A stretch of 64,000 nt of DNA. Origin: an uncultured Gammaproteobacteria bacterium. GTDB taxonomy: Bacteria > Patescibacteriota > Microgenomatia > Levybacterales > GWA1-39-11. Below are positions 5,927 through 28,176 of the stretch, piece by piece. The stretch lies in assembly GCA_964452165.1 (NCBI GenBank), contig CAYVKP010000002.1:24074-88073 (forward strand), read 5' to 3'. The first letter of the stretch is position 1. Every line of letters begins with the position of its first letter. The notes under the pieces are model-generated. The model did no database searches. It saw only the letters and a list, made by a program, of their open reading frames with translations, and was not told the origin of the DNA. A program made the position numbers and the translations under genes.

Positions 5927-6211
5927 GTGAAAACATTCGCCAAGCTTGCCTCGGGGCTGCTGCTCATCGCGTATGCGATCAGAGTCGTGGTTCTCGCAGT
6001 AGGGGAGACTTTTCGTCAGGAAGACGAAGAGCCATGGATGCCCCACACAAAACTGCTCACGACATTTCCCGTGCGCATGGTAACGGCTGTGCTTTTGGAT
6101 ATAGTCCAGCTGCGCGACAAGATTCGTGAGCTCAAGAACTCGCCCCCAATGATGATTCTGCTCACCTACAACGACGCCGTAACTCGTGACATTCCCGAAC
6201 GTCGGGACTAG
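5927..6211 (+). CDS. small membrane-anchored protein (~94 aa), cassette gene 2
   Basis: A GTG start 5 nt after the SD GAGGAGG, which overlaps the stop of gene 1. The ORF-track version beginning at 5873 would overlap gene 1. One N-terminal TM helix. Confidence 0.5.
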   Translation: MKTFAKLASGLLLIAYAIRVVVLAVGETFRQEDEEPWMPHTKLLTTFPVRMVTAVLLDIVQLRDKIRELKNSPPMMILLTYNDAVTRDIPERRD

Positions 6212-6240
6212 CCCTCGTCAAAAAAACGAGGAGAGAAAGG
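6209..6240 (+). promoter_or_regulatory. conserved intergenic motif, copy 1: stop codon, hairpin and SD (TAGCCCTCGTCAAAAAAACGAGGAGAGAAAGG)
   Basis: The CCTCGT/ACGAGG stem, with a 7-nt A-rich loop, partly sequesters the AGGAG SD. The motif is near-identical to copy 2. Confidence 0.45.
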
Positions 6241-6249
6241 GAACGCGAA

Positions 6250-6543
6250 ATGAAGCTCATCAAGTTCGTCGTCGGGGCTCTATTGGGATCCTACATCGGT
6301 GCGTCGGCTGTTGAGGCCTATCGAGAAGCCGAAAAGGACAAGAAGGGAGCCCCTTGGGATGGTGACATCCAGAAGGTTCCAACGGCGGGTCTTGCTGTGA
6401 TCGTTCTCGTCTTTAATATTGTCGGCGATATCCTGGACTTCTCCGAAGAAGTGCTTGATACAATAGACAATATTGGTCACGTGGGATCTCGGCCACTCAG
6501 TCCGCCCAAATACCGTCGAACCAGACCGTACAGGGTCAGTTAG
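6250..6543 (+). CDS. small membrane protein (97 aa), cassette gene 3
   Basis: ATG preceded by a conserved stop-hairpin-SD motif. N-terminal and central hydrophobic helices. Confidence 0.55.
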   Translation: MKLIKFVVGALLGSYIGASAVEAYREAEKDKKGAPWDGDIQKVPTAGLAVIVLVFNIVGDILDFSEEVLDTIDNIGHVGSRPLSPPKYRRTRPYRVS

Positions 6544-6571
6544 CCCTCGCCTGAAAACGAGGAGAGAAAGG
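6541..6571 (+). promoter_or_regulatory. conserved intergenic motif, copy 2 (TAGCCCTCGCCTGAAAACGAGGAGAGAAAGG)
   Basis: Same architecture as copy 1 (CCTCG/CGAGG stem, with the SD in the 3' arm). 30 of 32 positions are conserved with copy 1. Confidence 0.45.
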
Positions 6572-6579
6572 TAAAGCTC

Positions 6580-7011
6580 ATGGTCCCCGCCAAGAAGCTA
6601 CTCGCGTTCATCGTTACCGCAGCGGCCTTTACGGTCGTCATGCTTGCGGTGCTTTTGGTGCCAGCAAGACTAGACAGCGCTGCGCCCTCACGGGTTGATA
6701 GCGCGGCTGCGCTCGAGCAAGGTCCGCCACCTACACCGATTCCCGCTCTAGCCAGCGTTGAAGAGGTAGTGAAGTACCTTGAAGAGTATCTGGGCCGTAG
6801 CGTTAAGGTTGAATGGAGTGGTCTTGACGAACGTAAGGACGGAGGAAAGCTAGGAGTTCAGTTCACGCTGGAACCGCGCGATCCCATGTTCTATGCAAGG
6901 TGTACGCACCCGGCTGCGGCTGTGTCAGAACTGCCGTGTAGCTTCGAGGGCCCGTACTATCCCACGCCAAGGTTTCGATTCGCTGACCCCGCACCCGTTG
7001 CAGACAGATAA
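6580..7011 (+). CDS. secreted or membrane-anchored Pro/Ala-rich protein (143 aa), cassette gene 4
   Basis: N-terminal signal peptide or TM segment (LLAFIVTAAAFTVVMLAVLLVPA), an internal repeat ARLDSAAPSRVDSAAAL, and a PPPTPIP linker. Composition resembles high-GC organisms. Confidence 0.55.
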   Translation: MVPAKKLLAFIVTAAAFTVVMLAVLLVPARLDSAAPSRVDSAAALEQGPPPTPIPALASVEEVVKYLEEYLGRSVKVEWSGLDERKDGGKLGVQFTLEPRDPMFYARCTHPAAAVSELPCSFEGPYYPTPRFRFADPAPVADR

Positions 7012-8270: not shown

Positions 8271-8768
8271 ATGGCAAGAAGTCTTAATAAGGTAGAGTTG
8301 ATTGGAAATCTTACGCGCGATCCGGAATTGCGATACACACCGCAAGGAACGGCAGTTTGTACATTCGGTCTTGCAACAAATAGATCCTGGGTTACTGATT
8401 CAGGTGAAAAGAAAGAAGAAGCGGAATTTCACAGAATTGTTGCATGGAATAAGCTGGCAGAGCTTTGTTCGCAATTGTTAACAAAAGGAAGAAAGATTTA
8501 CGTCGAAGGAAGACTTGCGAATAGAAGTTGGACCGGACAAGATGGAGCGCAAAAAAACGTTACAGAAATTGTCATCAACGATATGATAATTCTTGATAAT
8601 AAGCGCGAAGGAGCAGGGGCAGAAGAAGCTGTACCAATGCCTGAAGAGGCCCAAGACAGCTCTATACCGGCGGAAGCGGCAGCTCCTAAAAAAAGCCCAA
8701 AAGTTGAAAAGGAACCGAAGCAAAGAGCGGAGTCTGAAGATGTAAATCCGGACGATATACCTTTCTAA
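8271..8768 (+). CDS. ssb: single-stranded DNA-binding protein
   Basis: An OB fold (…[19 protein letters not shown]…) and an acidic C-terminal tail ending DDIPF. Confidence 0.92.
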
Positions 8769-24931: not shown

Positions 24932-25729
24932 ATGAAGAAACTTCTAAGGTTTTTCTCACTTTCCAAGAGACAAAAGTTTGTTATCTCTGTTTTAATTCTT
25001 TCAGCCGGACTTTTCCTCACGGAATTTTTAGGGGGATTCACTCTAATCATATCCGCGTTCGCATTGAGCTTGTTCACTGTAGCTTTTCTTTATCTGTCGC
25101 TGCGGGATGATATAAAGGGTACATTTTATTATCCGATCCTTATTCTTCCCTTTGTATTTACGTTGTCTTTCGTGTTGTTTTATCCACTTATTCCTGCGCG
25201 TTTCATAACAAGGACAATACTTACATTATTTTATGCTTTCGGCTCTTACTCACTTTTTCTAACTCAAAACATTTTTGCAGTTTCCGCCATTAGGACGATA
25301 AATCTCATGAGGTCGGCGCGGATCGTGTCTTTTGTCTTAACGATACTGACCTTATTTTTGCTGACGAGTGTAATTTTTTCATTGAGATTGCCGATATTCT
25401 TATCGCCATTTTTAGTATTTGTTATAATTTTTCTTCTCAACTTCCAATCTCTATGGACATACAGTTTGAACCGTGACTTTGTTCCTGAGGGTTTGTTCTT
25501 GTCGCTTTTTACCTCGATCTGTTTGACCGAACTATCCATTGTCCTCAATCTGTGGCCGATAAATGGTTCCATCTATTCGATATTCTTAACAGGCGTGTTT
25601 TATGCCTATTCAGGCTTGAGTCACGCATGGGTAGAGAAGAGGCTCTTTAAAGGAGTCCTGTGGGAATACATTTGGGTAGGATTTATGGCAGTCTTGATCC
25701 TCGTATTTTTTTCAAAGTGGGGAATTTAA
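24932..25729 (+). CDS. polytopic membrane protein, hypothetical
   Basis: 265 aa with ~8 hydrophobic helices. No family recognised. Confidence 0.6.
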   Translation: MKKLLRFFSLSKRQKFVISVLILSAGLFLTEFLGGFTLIISAFALSLFTVAFLYLSLRDDIKGTFYYPILILPFVFTLSFVLFYPLIPARFITRTILTLFYAFGSYSLFLTQNIFAVSAIRTINLMRSARIVSFVLTILTLFLLTSVIFSLRLPIFLSPFLVFVIIFLLNFQSLWTYSLNRDFVPEGLFLSLFTSICLTELSIVLNLWPINGSIYSIFLTGVFYAYSGLSHAWVEKRLFKGVLWEYIWVGFMAVLILVFFSKWGI

Positions 25730-25769
25730 AAACCAACAAATTTTAATCATCACCAAAAAGTAGAGGAGT

Positions 25770-26090
25770 GGAGGCTAAAAATTATAGTTTGGGTCGATTT
25801 ATCAAGCTAAATCAATGATAGAGTTTGATATAGTTAATGTCCTATAATAAAATTACAATGTGGATATCTCTGGGATCAAGCCGTAATGTTTACTTTTCAC
25901 CGGCCTTAATTTAGCCTCGATTATACACCATGAGAGCAGTAGAGACTTTTCACGACTCTGCTCGAGTAGAAAATCTCATGCGTAAATCGTGCGTATTTAG
26001 CCTCGAAAATAGGAAAAAAACGAAAAAAATACGAAACTACTTCTCTCATGTGGTCTCCCACTAGGAATAAATACACTAAATTACAAATTT
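25770..26090. repeat. dispersed 9-12-bp motif GAGGCTAAA(AAT) in four copies within the ORF-free spacer
   Basis: Forward copies at 25770-25778 and 26082-26090. Reverse copies (TTTAGCCTC) at 25910-25918 and 25996-26004. The last three are spaced exactly 86 bp apart. An imperfect hairpin lies at 25934-25963. Confidence 0.4.
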
Positions 26091-26388
26091 TGAGGCTAAA
26101 AATAGCAATTTAGATTGATTTAATAAGTTAAACTACATATCCTCCGAGAGTAGGCGCTAAGCGTTCTTACAATTTATTTGCCAATTTGGGTGATGGATAC
26201 TCGCCGGTAGTGGTGACAATTGTTTAGTAAAATTTGTCCTAATAAGGGGTCAATGTACTCTTGCGGAAAGAGAACGTAATTAGCACTTATAGGGATACTT
26301 CTATTCCTTTAGGGCATTAGCATGTTTATAAAGAGTCTAAAAGAGACCCGGAGGACCGGTAGAGAACATATATAGCTTATGTCGTACA

Positions 26389-26416
26389 ATAATACTTTTA
26401 CGACATGGACGAGTGA
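26389..26416. repeat. perfect 8-bp-stem hairpin (ATGTCGTA - 12-nt loop - TACGACAT)
   Basis: Exact complementarity seen in the sequence. No U-tract follows, so it is not a canonical terminator. Confidence 0.35.
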
Positions 26417-26464
26417 CCTGAGAGTGTGCCTGGTTAGCCATCAATCATCATCGATTCTTCATTT

Positions 26465-26484
26465 TAATCAATAATTATTGATTA
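26465..26484. promoter_or_regulatory. perfect 20-bp palindrome TAATCAATAATTATTGATTA (candidate operator or protein-binding site)
   Basis: Exact dyad symmetry within the ORF-free spacer. Confidence 0.35.
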
Positions 26485-26688
26485 CTCTTTCTTGGATAAA
26501 TTAGTAGCAATTCTCTGTCTGTCATGTAAGCTTTATTTCTCCACTACTCTACTATAGGACGTAAATATTTTTTTCGTATTTTATTTTTTTTGATATTTTA
26601 TTTTTGTCTGAAAGTTTGTCGCTTGCTATAGACGATAAGATACTGGTTGTCTGTAGGAACAGGGCCTAGAAATCGATCCTCGCGGGGC

Positions 26689-28083
26689 CTAATGAGGAAT
26701 AGCTAGCTTATATGGTGGTTTTTTGCTTCGATTGCTAGTATGGATCTTTAGGCCTTGTTCAATGGCATCTAAGATAGCTACATACCTTGTAAAAATCGCG
26801 TTTGTCCAACCGAATCCTGATTGGTTTTCATAATGATAATTTTTTGCTAAATCTCCGCGGACGCCGTCAATTTTTTCAAAAAAAGTTTTATATTTGCTAA
26901 AAATTTTACTTTGAGCAGCCAAAGACTTTTTCATTATACGAATGGCATCATTGGTAAATCCATATTTTAGAAGTCCTATAACTGTCAGGTATTCAATTGG
27001 CGGCCAGATATTCGGATAGTCCCATTGTTTGGGTTTTAAAATATCTCTGATAGCGGGTTTGTATTGGGCCGGAATTTTCGACAATTCTACATTTGGAGCC
27101 AGGGACTTTTTGGCGCCTATTAGCAAACCGTAATCTGTCTCAAAATCTTTAAGTTTCTTGACCATAAGTTTTGCTTGAGCAGGTGTTGCAAGACCTGCCC
27201 AAAGAGGAATAAAGGAGGCAAGGGACAGGAAGTCGCTTTGCCGGCCGTTGACATAGTCATAGTCAAAGAAGAGCCCATTTTTGCGGTTCCACATATATTT
27301 ATTAACCAATTTTTGGCGCGCAAGTGCTTTACCTGACCAAAACTTTTGCTCATGAGAATCTCCAAGTATCTTACCGATTTTTGCAAAATCTCGCTCATAT
27401 TTAAATAGATAACAGTTAAGATCTATAGGTAGGAATTCATTACACCTGTTATAAAATCTTGAGGTAAAATCCCAACCTGATTCAAGCTCTGAGGAATGTG
27501 CATAGCCAATATCACGGTCGCCATAGCGATTTAAATTGAGACCTTTAACCTTATGGTAAAAGAGATTTTCATTTTCCCAAACGTGCCAGTATTCGCGTTT
27601 CGCAATTTCGGCCGCTTTGCGTAGCCAATTAAGACGAGTTTCGATTTTCATGGTTTTACTAATTTCCTTTGAAAAAAGATAGTCCTTGTGAGCCCGATTA
27701 TATGTATCAAGGATCATAGATGTCAGGAATGGAGGTTGCGATCGTCCTGTTGATGCTGGTGAGTTGAAGTTGGGGATTATTCCATATTTTTCATAAAGAT
27801 ATATGAAATTGTCCACCATGGGTCTTAGAATTTTTTCTCTTTTTGTTCCAAGCAGTCCTTTGAAAATAAAAAAAGTATCCCAGTAGAAAACGTGAGTAAA
27901 TTTCTTGTCGTTTGGAACAATGAACGCATTTGGTATATGAATAATATTCTCGTGCATTCTTTTGGTAGTTCGACGTAAAATAATATTGAACAAACGGTCG
28001 GTTCTCTTTGGTTTCACCGTGACCTTGTCCCAAAACTTATCTATGTACTCAAGCTCGTTTTTATACTTATTTGCGTAAGTCAT
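26689..28083 (-). CDS. alpha,alpha-trehalase (glycoside hydrolase family 37)
   Basis: 464 aa. Both GH37 signatures are present: …HVFYWDTFF… (signature 1-like) and …KQWDYPNIWPPIEY… (signature 2). Confidence 0.85.
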   Translation of the reverse strand: MTYANKYKNELEYIDKFWDKVTVKPKRTDRLFNIILRRTTKRMHENIIHIPNAFIVPNDKKFTHVFYWDTFFIFKGLLGTKREKILRPMVDNFIYLYEKYGIIPNFNSPASTGRSQPPFLTSMILDTYNRAHKDYLFSKEISKTMKIETRLNWLRKAAEIAKREYWHVWENENLFYHKVKGLNLNRYGDRDIGYAHSSELESGWDFTSRFYNRCNEFLPIDLNCYLFKYERDFAKIGKILGDSHEQKFWSGKALARQKLVNKYMWNRKNGLFFDYDYVNGRQSDFLSLASFIPLWAGLATPAQAKLMVKKLKDFETDYGLLIGAKKSLAPNVELSKIPAQYKPAIRDILKPKQWDYPNIWPPIEYLTVIGLLKYGFTNDAIRIMKKSLAAQSKIFSKYKTFFEKIDGVRGDLAKNYHYENQSGFGWTNAIFTRYVAILDAIEQGLKIHTSNRSKKPPYKLAIPH

Positions 28084-28176
28084 GCCTCAATATTAACCCG
28101 ATTTGACGGGCTATTCAAGCAAATGGTTGACAATCCGCGTTCTATGTCGCAAAATAATTAGGCAACTTGATCGAAT

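Follow-up and report, generated by a model that had tools for sequence, protein, structure and literature searches.

We found that a 28-bp sequence in the longest intergenic gap of a 64-kb stretch of Levybacteria DNA (contig CAYVKP010000002.1; the whole stretch is called the window hereafter) has the architecture of a Xer recombination site: an 11-bp arm, a 6-bp centre and a second 11-bp arm, which is the layout of dif (PMC5357621; PMC2958812). That the 28-mer is a site of this type we consider highly probable. The full account, in which the gap around it (25730–26688) is the conserved dif region of the chromosome in this lineage of the Candidate Phyla Radiation (CPR, Patescibacteria) and serves the resolution of chromosome dimers, is likely. 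The gap measures 959 nt, compared to 501 nt for the runner-up in the window, and lies between two convergent genes assigned via Pfam, a DUF5656 gene on the + strand (ending at 25729) and a trehalase gene on the - strand (ending at 26689). Its GC content is 35.6% versus 41.6% for the whole window, and the longest open reading frame (ORF) inside it comprises 51 aa. A first inspection of the letters alone (the sequence-only reading) had described an AT-rich spacer between convergent genes without any ORF of 60 aa or more, and was right in all three respects. It had also argued that converging genes need no promoter space and that such a gap is anomalous; the argument is reasonable, but the gap turned out to be a conserved feature of the whole lineage and not of one genome. 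Among the explanations it offered, a protein-binding hub tied to the neighbouring Xer recombinase is the one that the evidence favours, namely the Xer-type core site and the DNA motifs of conserved position, whereas a decayed mobile element or integration scar fails to explain a single-copy region that is fixed in place across the lineage.

The DUF5656 protein has relatives at 56–66% identity in 26 genome loci, and the gap could be aligned to relatives by nucleotide search despite divergence. The ORF-free region between the DUF5656 gene and the xer gene recurs in 21 related genomes and in 93 metagenome contigs, and the outstanding conserved block in the nucleotide alignment is 26377–26409 of the window. 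The 21 genome relatives had been found via the neighbouring protein, independently of the 28-mer: in 21/21 relatives that reach the site, the pattern ATGTCG[C/T]ACAA-TAATAC-TTTT[A/G]CGACAT is present once, in a single orientation and with no more than two mismatches. The metagenome contigs were retrieved by an exact-pattern scan; because they were found by exact match the invariance across them is partly circular, while the 21 genome loci are free of this circularity. The copy number is one in the window, one in each of 115 loci and one in each of the 93 metagenome contigs. In the 1.41-Mb contig Ga0196971_1000001, the site is found at ∼962.5 kb. The identity of the flanking proteins to those of the window falls to ∼30% (DUF5656) and ∼53% (Xer) while the 28-mer stays nearly invariant. 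For 90 distinct sequences, 25 of the 28 positions reach an information content of 2 bits, whereas most positions in the flanks stay under 0.5 bits; the sequence just outside the 28-mer is unrelated between relatives, so conservation ends at the edges of the site. Appreciable variation is found only at positions 7 and 22, the mirror positions of the two arms. The arms are symmetric at 10/11 positions in the window and at 9/11 in the commonest variant, which bears the non-pairing combination of C and A at positions 7 and 22. Because this variant cannot pair there, selection acts on the sequence of each arm and not on a stem. The sequence-only reading had seen the site as a hairpin with a perfect 8-bp stem at 26389–26416: the hairpin exists, but at 26379–26406. 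Compared to known dif sequences, the 28-mer matches E. coli dif at 14/28 positions (chance P ∼0.02) and B. subtilis dif at 15/28 positions (chance P ∼0.006). The similarity reported between archaeal and bacterial dif sites is comparable (PMC2958812).

A search of the viral contig collection IMG/VR did not yield the exact 28-mer. However, when both arms were combined with any 6-nt spacer, 17 viral contigs (L123–L139) with 12 different spacers were found, whereas a control with reversed arms of the same composition and symmetry gave 0 viral matches. When spacers of 2–14 nt were allowed, no contig was added to the 17, and each of them had a spacer of exactly 6 nt. Judged from these sequences, fixed arms with a fixed spacer length and a free spacer sequence are what would be expected of the core site of a tyrosine recombinase: the free spacer fits a model in which the arms bind protein and the spacer need only match that of the partner site. 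Several of the contigs are identified as phages by terminase large subunits of different PHROG families or by a major head protein or connector adjoining the site. Contigs of tailed phages carry one intergenic arm-pair copy each, usually within a few hundred bases of packaging or head genes. Hallmark genes of filamentous phages, those for a rolling-circle replication initiator and a Zot-like ATPase, are present in three of the four contigs with the spacer TATATC (L126, L133, L138). No Xer-like gene or integrase was found in the examined parts of the viral contigs. The conserved chromosomal motifs described below are absent from the phage sites, and the motif GAGGCTA occurs in the viral contigs at background density.

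The contig L138 contains a 5.9-kb block of filamentous-phage genes (2620–8514) with junctions at both ends. At the left edge, AGGTCGCACAA-TATATC-TTGTTTGTTGT (2620–2647) consists of the left arm and spacer followed by an unrelated right arm, and at the right edge lies a full site with the same TATATC spacer (8487–8514). Cellular genes flank the block: one flank encodes a DUF3048 protein, the opposite one a MurG C-terminal domain. A junction pattern of one full and one degenerate site is left by elements that integrate via host Xer recombination (PMC5357621). From its sequence, the block thus looks like a prophage that was integrated by the Xer recombination of a low-GC (31%) host. Measured against the features of integrative mobile elements exploiting Xer (IMEX), it shows a Rep and Zot-like block between a half site and a full site of the same spacer and no Xer-like gene in the part examined; this comparison concerns related loci and not the window. 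The host of L138 falls outside the DUF5656-xer lineage, and the arms therefore seem to be used more widely.

The conserved gene that follows the region is an xer ortholog (70–85% identity) in every relative with enough contig. After re-orientation, the metagenome contigs carry YebC and DUF5656 genes upstream of the site and xer downstream where the flank suffices, the latter in 24 of the 27 contigs with at least 4.5 kb of right flank. Across loci the start of xer lies 0.23–3.4 kb past the site, often with cargo genes in between; in the window the distance is ∼1.8 kb. The product of the window gene bears a Phage_integrase domain and a SAM-like N-terminal domain (Pfam). With NCBIfam models it scores 254 bits for XerC, 244 bits for XerD and 217.6 bits for XerA, all of which are under the equivalog cut-offs (220 for XerA). 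The nearest solved structures are P. abyssi XerA (4a8e, 7.5e-38) and E. coli XerD (1a0p), and in the alignments to these two the protein carries the conserved motifs GLRVSEL, HTLRHSFAT, LGH and IYTHV, as judged by eye. A second Xer paralog was found neither in the window nor in any examined locus. In four loci (L011:9410–9496, L012:10595–10648, L020:9679–9762 and L026:9420–9509) the last 18–30 codons of xer are duplicated right after the stop codon with 82–100% aa identity; these duplicates may be the footprint of something that inserts into or duplicates this end of the gene.

Arm-like half-sites were also observed upstream of xer. In the window, such a half-site is followed by a spacer-like TAATTA and lacks a right arm (Table 1), and 54 of 62 distinct loci carry one to three of them in the 260 nt before xer, with few exceptions on the + strand. 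They occur with or without cargo genes between xer and the full site. We predict that these half-sites are a Xer operator for autoregulation or an auxiliary recombination site.

Taken together, these observations lead to the following proposed mechanism. Two Xer monomers would occupy the arms and bring two copies of the site into synapsis, after which strands would be exchanged across the 6 bp between the arms. Chromosome dimers that arise from homologous recombination would in this way be turned back into monomers, which is the function of dif and most likely that of the site. A single recombinase, which would do the whole job as in XerS/difSL, XerH/difH and Sulfolobus XerA, is suggested by the strong symmetry of the arms, by the constant linkage between site and gene and by XerA being the closest solved relative. 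Phages would bear the same arms with spacers of their own either to integrate, as L138 apparently did, or to resolve their own multimers. At the half-sites upstream of its gene, Xer probably controls its own synthesis. The other conserved elements, including the GAGGCTAAA copies, TCCTATART with its inverted copy, the DnaA box, GACTTTTCACG and an A-rich 17-mer, would be sites of accessory or architectural proteins, or promoters, restricted to the chromosomal locus.

We also analyzed gene orientation and GC skew around the site. For the 115 loci with the site, 362 genes on the + strand and 67 on the - strand were counted in the left flank compared to 134 and 204 in the right flank; 84% of the genes of the left flank and 60% of those of the right flank point at the site. 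The orientation-corrected GC skew of the + strand amounts to +0.074 in the left and +0.031 in the right flank. An origin predicts the opposite of a positive left-flank skew, therefore the site is not at an origin, and the locus is compatible with a position close to the terminus.

Several points weigh against the interpretation as a dif region. The corrected skew drops at the site without reversing, and in the window the cumulative skew peaks at ∼33 kb and the third-position skew remains positive to ∼44 kb. The invariance of the 28-mer in the 93 metagenome contigs is circular. The count of one site refers to the window, loci and contigs and that of one Xer paralog to the window and loci, so that both are provisional for the chromosome. 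The viral contigs were examined in part, so that an integrase could sit elsewhere on them; the host of L138 lacks the DUF5656-xer context. Finally, a large conserved motif array is no known feature of dif sites, and the DnaA box that it includes is unexpected next to a probable dif site.

Breaks in assemblies were observed at the site as well. Among the 93 metagenome contigs, eight ends lie within 50 nt of the site compared to 2.1 expected, a ∼4-fold enrichment. We drew no support for recombination from it, since assemblies could break at a 28- to 30-nt sequence common to co-occurring genomes; the breaks could stem from such a common sequence or from population heterogeneity. The Logan assemblies of SRR9179560, SRR9179562 and SRR9179563 (L001, L002 and L003) all break inside the 28-mer, with an 18-nt overlap that corresponds to 26388–26405 of the window. 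In the metagenome-assembled genome (MAG) CAZMSF01, two contigs (67 and 69; L023 and L024) each contain a copy of the DUF5656 gene, and both end ∼280 nt past it, inside the conserved noncoding region, a pattern that suggests a strain mixture or assembly trouble at the locus.

Apart from the core site, the gap holds an array of further motifs, whose coordinates are given in Table 1 together with those of the site and the xer gene. The motif GAGGCTAAA is present in exactly four copies in the 64 kb, all of them in the gap, where 0.7 would be expected by chance; 0/100 shuffles reach four. The sequence-only reading had reported this count correctly, but two coordinates had to be changed (25770 and 26082 to 25771 and 26092), and its claim that the last three copies are exactly 86 bp apart was in error, the spacings being 86 and 96 nt. 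In all loci examined, TGAGGCTA (up to one mismatch) has a density of 5.2/kb in the region versus 0.66/kb outside, an eightfold difference, and in one large group of relatives its copies occupy fixed distances from the site: -383, -277, -212, -201, -180, -106, +40 and ∼+340. A hint of helical phasing of the motif copies is seen in some relatives, though not in the window. The repeat D1 contains a palindrome-like GATTTATCAA at 25795–25804 and a related GATTTAATAA at 26116–26125, both without an arm-like part. In eight relatives (L008, L009, L011, L012, L014, L016, L021 and L028; for example L008:7250–7290), a palindrome-like TTGATTTATCAA followed by the right-arm-like AAATTGCGACAT is found ∼330 nt upstream of the site; it could have arisen from an old duplication of the site or could be one more half-site for Xer.

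Table 1. Positions of the core site, the recombinase gene and further elements in the window
Feature	Position	Strand	Remarks
Core recombination site (candidate dif)	26379-26406	no strand	11-6-11 architecture
Left arm ATGTCGTACAA	26379-26389		
Central region TAATAC	26390-26395		6 bp
Right arm TTTTACGACAT	26396-26406		
xer gene, tyrosine recombinase of XerC/XerD/XerA type, 317 aa	28177-29130	+	Pfam, NCBIfam, PDB relatives
Arm-type half-site ATGTCGCAAAA, then spacer-like TAATTA, without right arm	28144-28160	+	33 nt upstream of xer start codon
Trehalase gene, variable cargo between conserved region and xer	26689-28083	-	Pfam Trehalase
GAGGCTAAA copy 1	25771-25779	+	Within conserved block AGTAGAGGAGTGGAGGCTAAAAAT (25759-25782); starts 41-nt repeat D1 (25771-25811)
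GAGGCTAAA copy 2	25910-25918	-	
GAGGCTAAA copy 3	25996-26004	-	Matches copy at ∼-383 from site in relatives
GAGGCTAAA copy 4	26092-26100	+	Starts second D1 repeat (26092-26132); matches copy at ∼-277 in relatives
GTTTGATATAG ... TCCTATAAT block, -10-promoter-like	25823-25848	+	Promoter-like match; conserved in close and distant relatives
DnaA-box-like TGTGGATAT	25859-25867	+	8/9 match to TGTGGATAA
GACTTTTCACG	25944-25954	+	Conserved 10-mer; loop of imperfect hairpin 25934-25963
A-rich 17-mer ACGAAAAAAATACGAAA	26020-26036	+	In 62 loci, mostly 170-440 nt upstream of site
CCACTACTCTACTATAGGAC	26541-26560	+	Reverse complement GTCCTATAGTAGAGTAGTGG = inverted copy of left-side TCCTATAAT and AGTAGAGGAGTGG (AGTAGAG..AGTGG elements)
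GGGCCTAGAAATCGATCCTCGCGGGGCC block (consensus GGGGCCTTAAATCGCATCCTGGAAGGGCT; begins GGGCCTAGAAATCGATCC)	26662-26689	+	Adjoins trehalase stop codon
20-bp perfect palindrome TAATCAATAATTATTGATTA	26465-26484	no strand	Not part of conserved system

Upstream of the core site, TCCTATAAT repeats the motif at 26549–26560 in inverted form and makes up an inverted repeat with 26550–26565. An invertible promoter, with inverted GAGGCTAAA copies around the promoter-like site, was considered and dropped, as orientation and order are fixed in all relatives. The DnaA-box-like TGTGGATAT had been predicted from the sequence alone, with 25858 as its position instead of 25859–25867. At this place TGTGGATAA/T is kept in close relatives, and several more distant ones have a perfect TGTGGATAA. 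In L010, L012, L013, L021 and L026, a DnaA box (TGTGGATAA or TGTGGATAT) was observed ∼300 nt upstream of the site; as in the window, it closely follows a TATAAT-like element. The imperfect hairpin at 25934–25963 is present as a sequence, as the sequence-only reading had stated; its stem is not kept in relatives, where it is the loop sequence that is conserved instead, and a second copy of the loop motif, CTTTTCAC, lies at 25893–25900. The 20-bp palindrome was likewise correctly read as a sequence; the stretch is AT-rich and variable even among the closest relatives. Thus neither this palindrome nor the 86-bp periodic unit, both of which had been put forward as key features, is conserved. Downstream, the alignment with the closest relatives shows the core site followed by a conserved GGACGAGTGAC..GAGAGTGTG, and CTACTATAGG is almost invariant ∼170 nt past the site. 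We read the conserved blocks as DNA-level elements: predicted protein-binding sites and perhaps promoters. By analogy to the repeats of Thermococcales dif, for which a similar proposal exists, the array could tentatively be assigned accessory or architectural sites that restrict or organise chromosomal recombination, although we would not expect this to be the more probable outcome. Elsewhere in the window, the 1-kb bin 6001–7000 has a GC content of 55% compared to ∼41% in the remaining bins and contains a run of short + strand ORFs (97–143 aa).

A more far-reaching and rather speculative idea, which we hold to be improbable in its full extent, is that the whole 1–1.5-kb region represents an undescribed CPR ‘terminus control centre’ composed of a single Xer, a dif site in a fixed scaffold of GAGGCTAAA arrays, the inverted TCCTATART, a DnaA box and the half-sites. 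The scaffold of such a centre would replace or supplement FtsK-type control and couple the resolution of dimers both to the state of replication and to Xer autoregulation. Filamentous as well as tailed phages of these hosts would exploit the bare core. If true, CPR would thereby gain a first described Xer/dif system, one that includes tailed phages using a host Xer site.

We next weigh explanations that compete with a dif region. The 28-mer could be the recombination site of an integrative module that does not serve dimer resolution, with a Xer-like integrase capturing or moving cargo between the site and the half-sites of xer. The stretch between site and xer indeed looks like an insertion hotspot for cargo genes. 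The kinds of cargo vary with the lineage (trehalase, proteins without Pfam match (ORFans), a MazG-like protein, a C39-like peptidase). A trehalase gene occupies the stretch in the window but, among the relatives, in a few only (L005, L044, L104); the others have different genes there or none. Differing cargo, mostly on the - strand, was observed between site and xer in the window (26689–28083) and in L044, L046, L056, L073, L082, L088, L098 and L108. The variable - strand cargo would suit such a module, as would the trehalase gene of the window, which has the full site on one side and, in direct orientation to it, the half-site at 28144 on the other, the enrichment of contig ends within 50 nt of the site (see above) and the location of prophages at such sites. 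However, site, xer and half-sites are also kept in cargo-free loci, in some of which xer is only 230–700 nt away from the site, and the module is single-copy and vertically conserved beside housekeeping genes. A second full site flanking cargo genes was searched for across the loci and none was found. Moreover, true dif sites are known to take up cargo as well (dif modules, IMEX elements), so that cargo capture agrees with a dif function. We consider a cargo module unlikely.

The gap could also encode one or several structured noncoding RNAs (ncRNAs), the 28-mer being a hairpin and GAGGCTAAA a recurring RNA motif. Such an explanation would agree with a long conserved ORF-free region in which short invariant blocks alternate with variable stretches of roughly kept length, with -10-like promoter elements that point inward from both sides, and with local inverted repeats (AGCCTCA-TTT-TGAGGCT in relatives; 25929–25942 with 26037–26050 in the window). 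Following a suggestion of the sequence-only reading, which had listed a structured ncRNA among its options, the sequences were scanned with Rfam 15 (at the gathering threshold, and in the gap with E values as high as 10): no relevant family was found in the window or in 11 relatives, and the only matches near the gap are two chance-level snoRNA models at its edge (E 0.75 and 7.6). Folding z-scores over 20 loci have means of -0.3 to -1.4, with little difference between the strands; they are ∼0 past the site and strongest where motif copies form inverted repeats. RNAalifold gave no consensus structure for the block 26662–26689 on either strand. A covarying stem around the A-rich 17-mer, which had been seen by eye, was ruled out by comparing matched and mismatched flank duplexes (P = 0.25–0.68). 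In addition, the stem is disrupted in the majority variant of the 28-mer, the ‘loop’ is as invariant as the ‘stem’, and phage spacers that vary freely at fixed length fit recognition by a protein rather than an RNA loop. An ncRNA locus is thus poorly compatible with the data, and we judge it to be improbable.

If the gap instead controlled transcription in the ordinary way, another DNA-binding protein would use the 28-mer as its operator, and the motifs would be promoters or terminators for xer or its neighbours. The -10-like elements, a hairpin with a T-run on the - strand in relatives and the overlap of arm-like sequences with the zone just upstream of xer could be explained in this way. In the window, however, the flanking genes converge, and across loci xer is up to 3.4 kb off with genes in between; nor would a fixed-length 6-nt spacer of free sequence in unrelated phages and prophage junctions be expected of an operator. 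This renders a control region of the ordinary kind quite improbable.

Even less probable is a replication origin or another DnaA-controlled element. The conserved TGTGGATAA/T, the AT-richness, many short repeats in both orientations and TAG-rich GAGTAGTAGTAG-like runs in some relatives would fit such an element. On the other hand the genes converge, the + strand skew of the left flank is positive and there is only one good DnaA box; the linkage to xer and the phage copies would be left without explanation. An origin inferred from the DnaA box was accordingly ruled out by gene orientation and skew, together with the presence of a single box. As a weak additional test, the window and all loci were searched with a regular expression for the Walker-A motif of DnaA, without a match. 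The remnant of a pseudogenised protein-coding gene, finally, would account for the size of the gap alone and is hardly credible: in ∼20 relatives no ORF of conserved position or length is found over the 1–1.5 kb downstream of the DUF5656 gene (stray ORFs of 70–95 aa differ among them), and the motifs are short and sharp-edged, in contrast to codon-like conservation.

How replication is finished and chromosomes are separated is essentially unstudied in the small-genome, mostly uncultured CPR/Patescibacteria, and our full-text literature searches returned no description that links dif or Xer to these lineages. A defined 28-bp site would mark the probable terminus in fragmented metagenome-assembled genomes; it could serve as a handle for estimates of replication rate (peak-to-trough) and as a testable substrate for a small single recombinase. 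Since phages carry the same arms, prophages and phage–host links become recognisable in these lineages. The conserved motif array, which goes beyond known dif biology, is a lead to new DNA-binding partners.

The proposed system belongs to a known kind, dif/Xer, to which it adds extra features. Compared to XerCD/dif of E. coli and B. subtilis, it shares the 28-bp site of 11-6-11 layout, 14–15 of 28 positions and a recombinase of the same family and size class. A filamentous-type prophage between a full and a degenerate site also resembles the CTX and VGJ phages in Vibrio (PMC5357621). In contrast to the classical system, in which xerC and xerD are unlinked to dif, one xer was seen here and it is linked to the site. 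Furthermore, the arms are symmetric at 9–10/11 positions versus 6/11 in E. coli (own count), and the site lies in a conserved 1–1.5-kb noncoding region rich in other motifs.

Site and recombinase gene in one module are described as a hallmark of single-recombinase systems (PMC5357621). With XerS/difSL of streptococci and lactococci and XerH/difH of Helicobacter and Campylobacter, the Levybacteria system has in common the linkage of site and gene and inner arm bases that are A/T-rich (..AAAA / TTTT..). However, the window Xer scores 131 bits with the XerS model versus a cut-off of 267 bits and is 317 aa long versus ∼355 aa, its PDB match to XerH is 1e-11 versus 1e-38 for XerA, and the spacer is 6 bp compared to 11 bp in difSL. 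Unlike in the XerS and XerH modules, the gene is 0.23–3.4 kb away from the site, often with cargo in between.

Archaeal XerA/dif of Thermococcales and Sulfolobales offers a further parallel: XerA is the best solved relative (4a8e), the NCBIfam score of 217.6 is just under 220, the arms are near-symmetric and about half of the positions are common with bacterial dif. In Sulfolobales, dif is located near xerA, and it has been proposed that a partner protein binds the conserved sequences and inverted repeats that flank archaeal dif (PMC2958812). The differences are that the host is bacterial here and the flanking array is much larger. For half-sites upstream of the archaeal xerA gene, we found no description.

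In the plasmid Xer sites cer and psi, the core is accompanied by DNA that binds accessory proteins (ArgR/PepA and ArcA/PepA, respectively) and is dispensable for catalysis as such. Their sequences are not similar to the region described here, whose array flanks the core on either side and spans more than 600 bp, with a role that we infer. The arrangement is nevertheless alike: a conserved motif array stands beside the chromosomal core, and it is absent from the copies of the core in phages.

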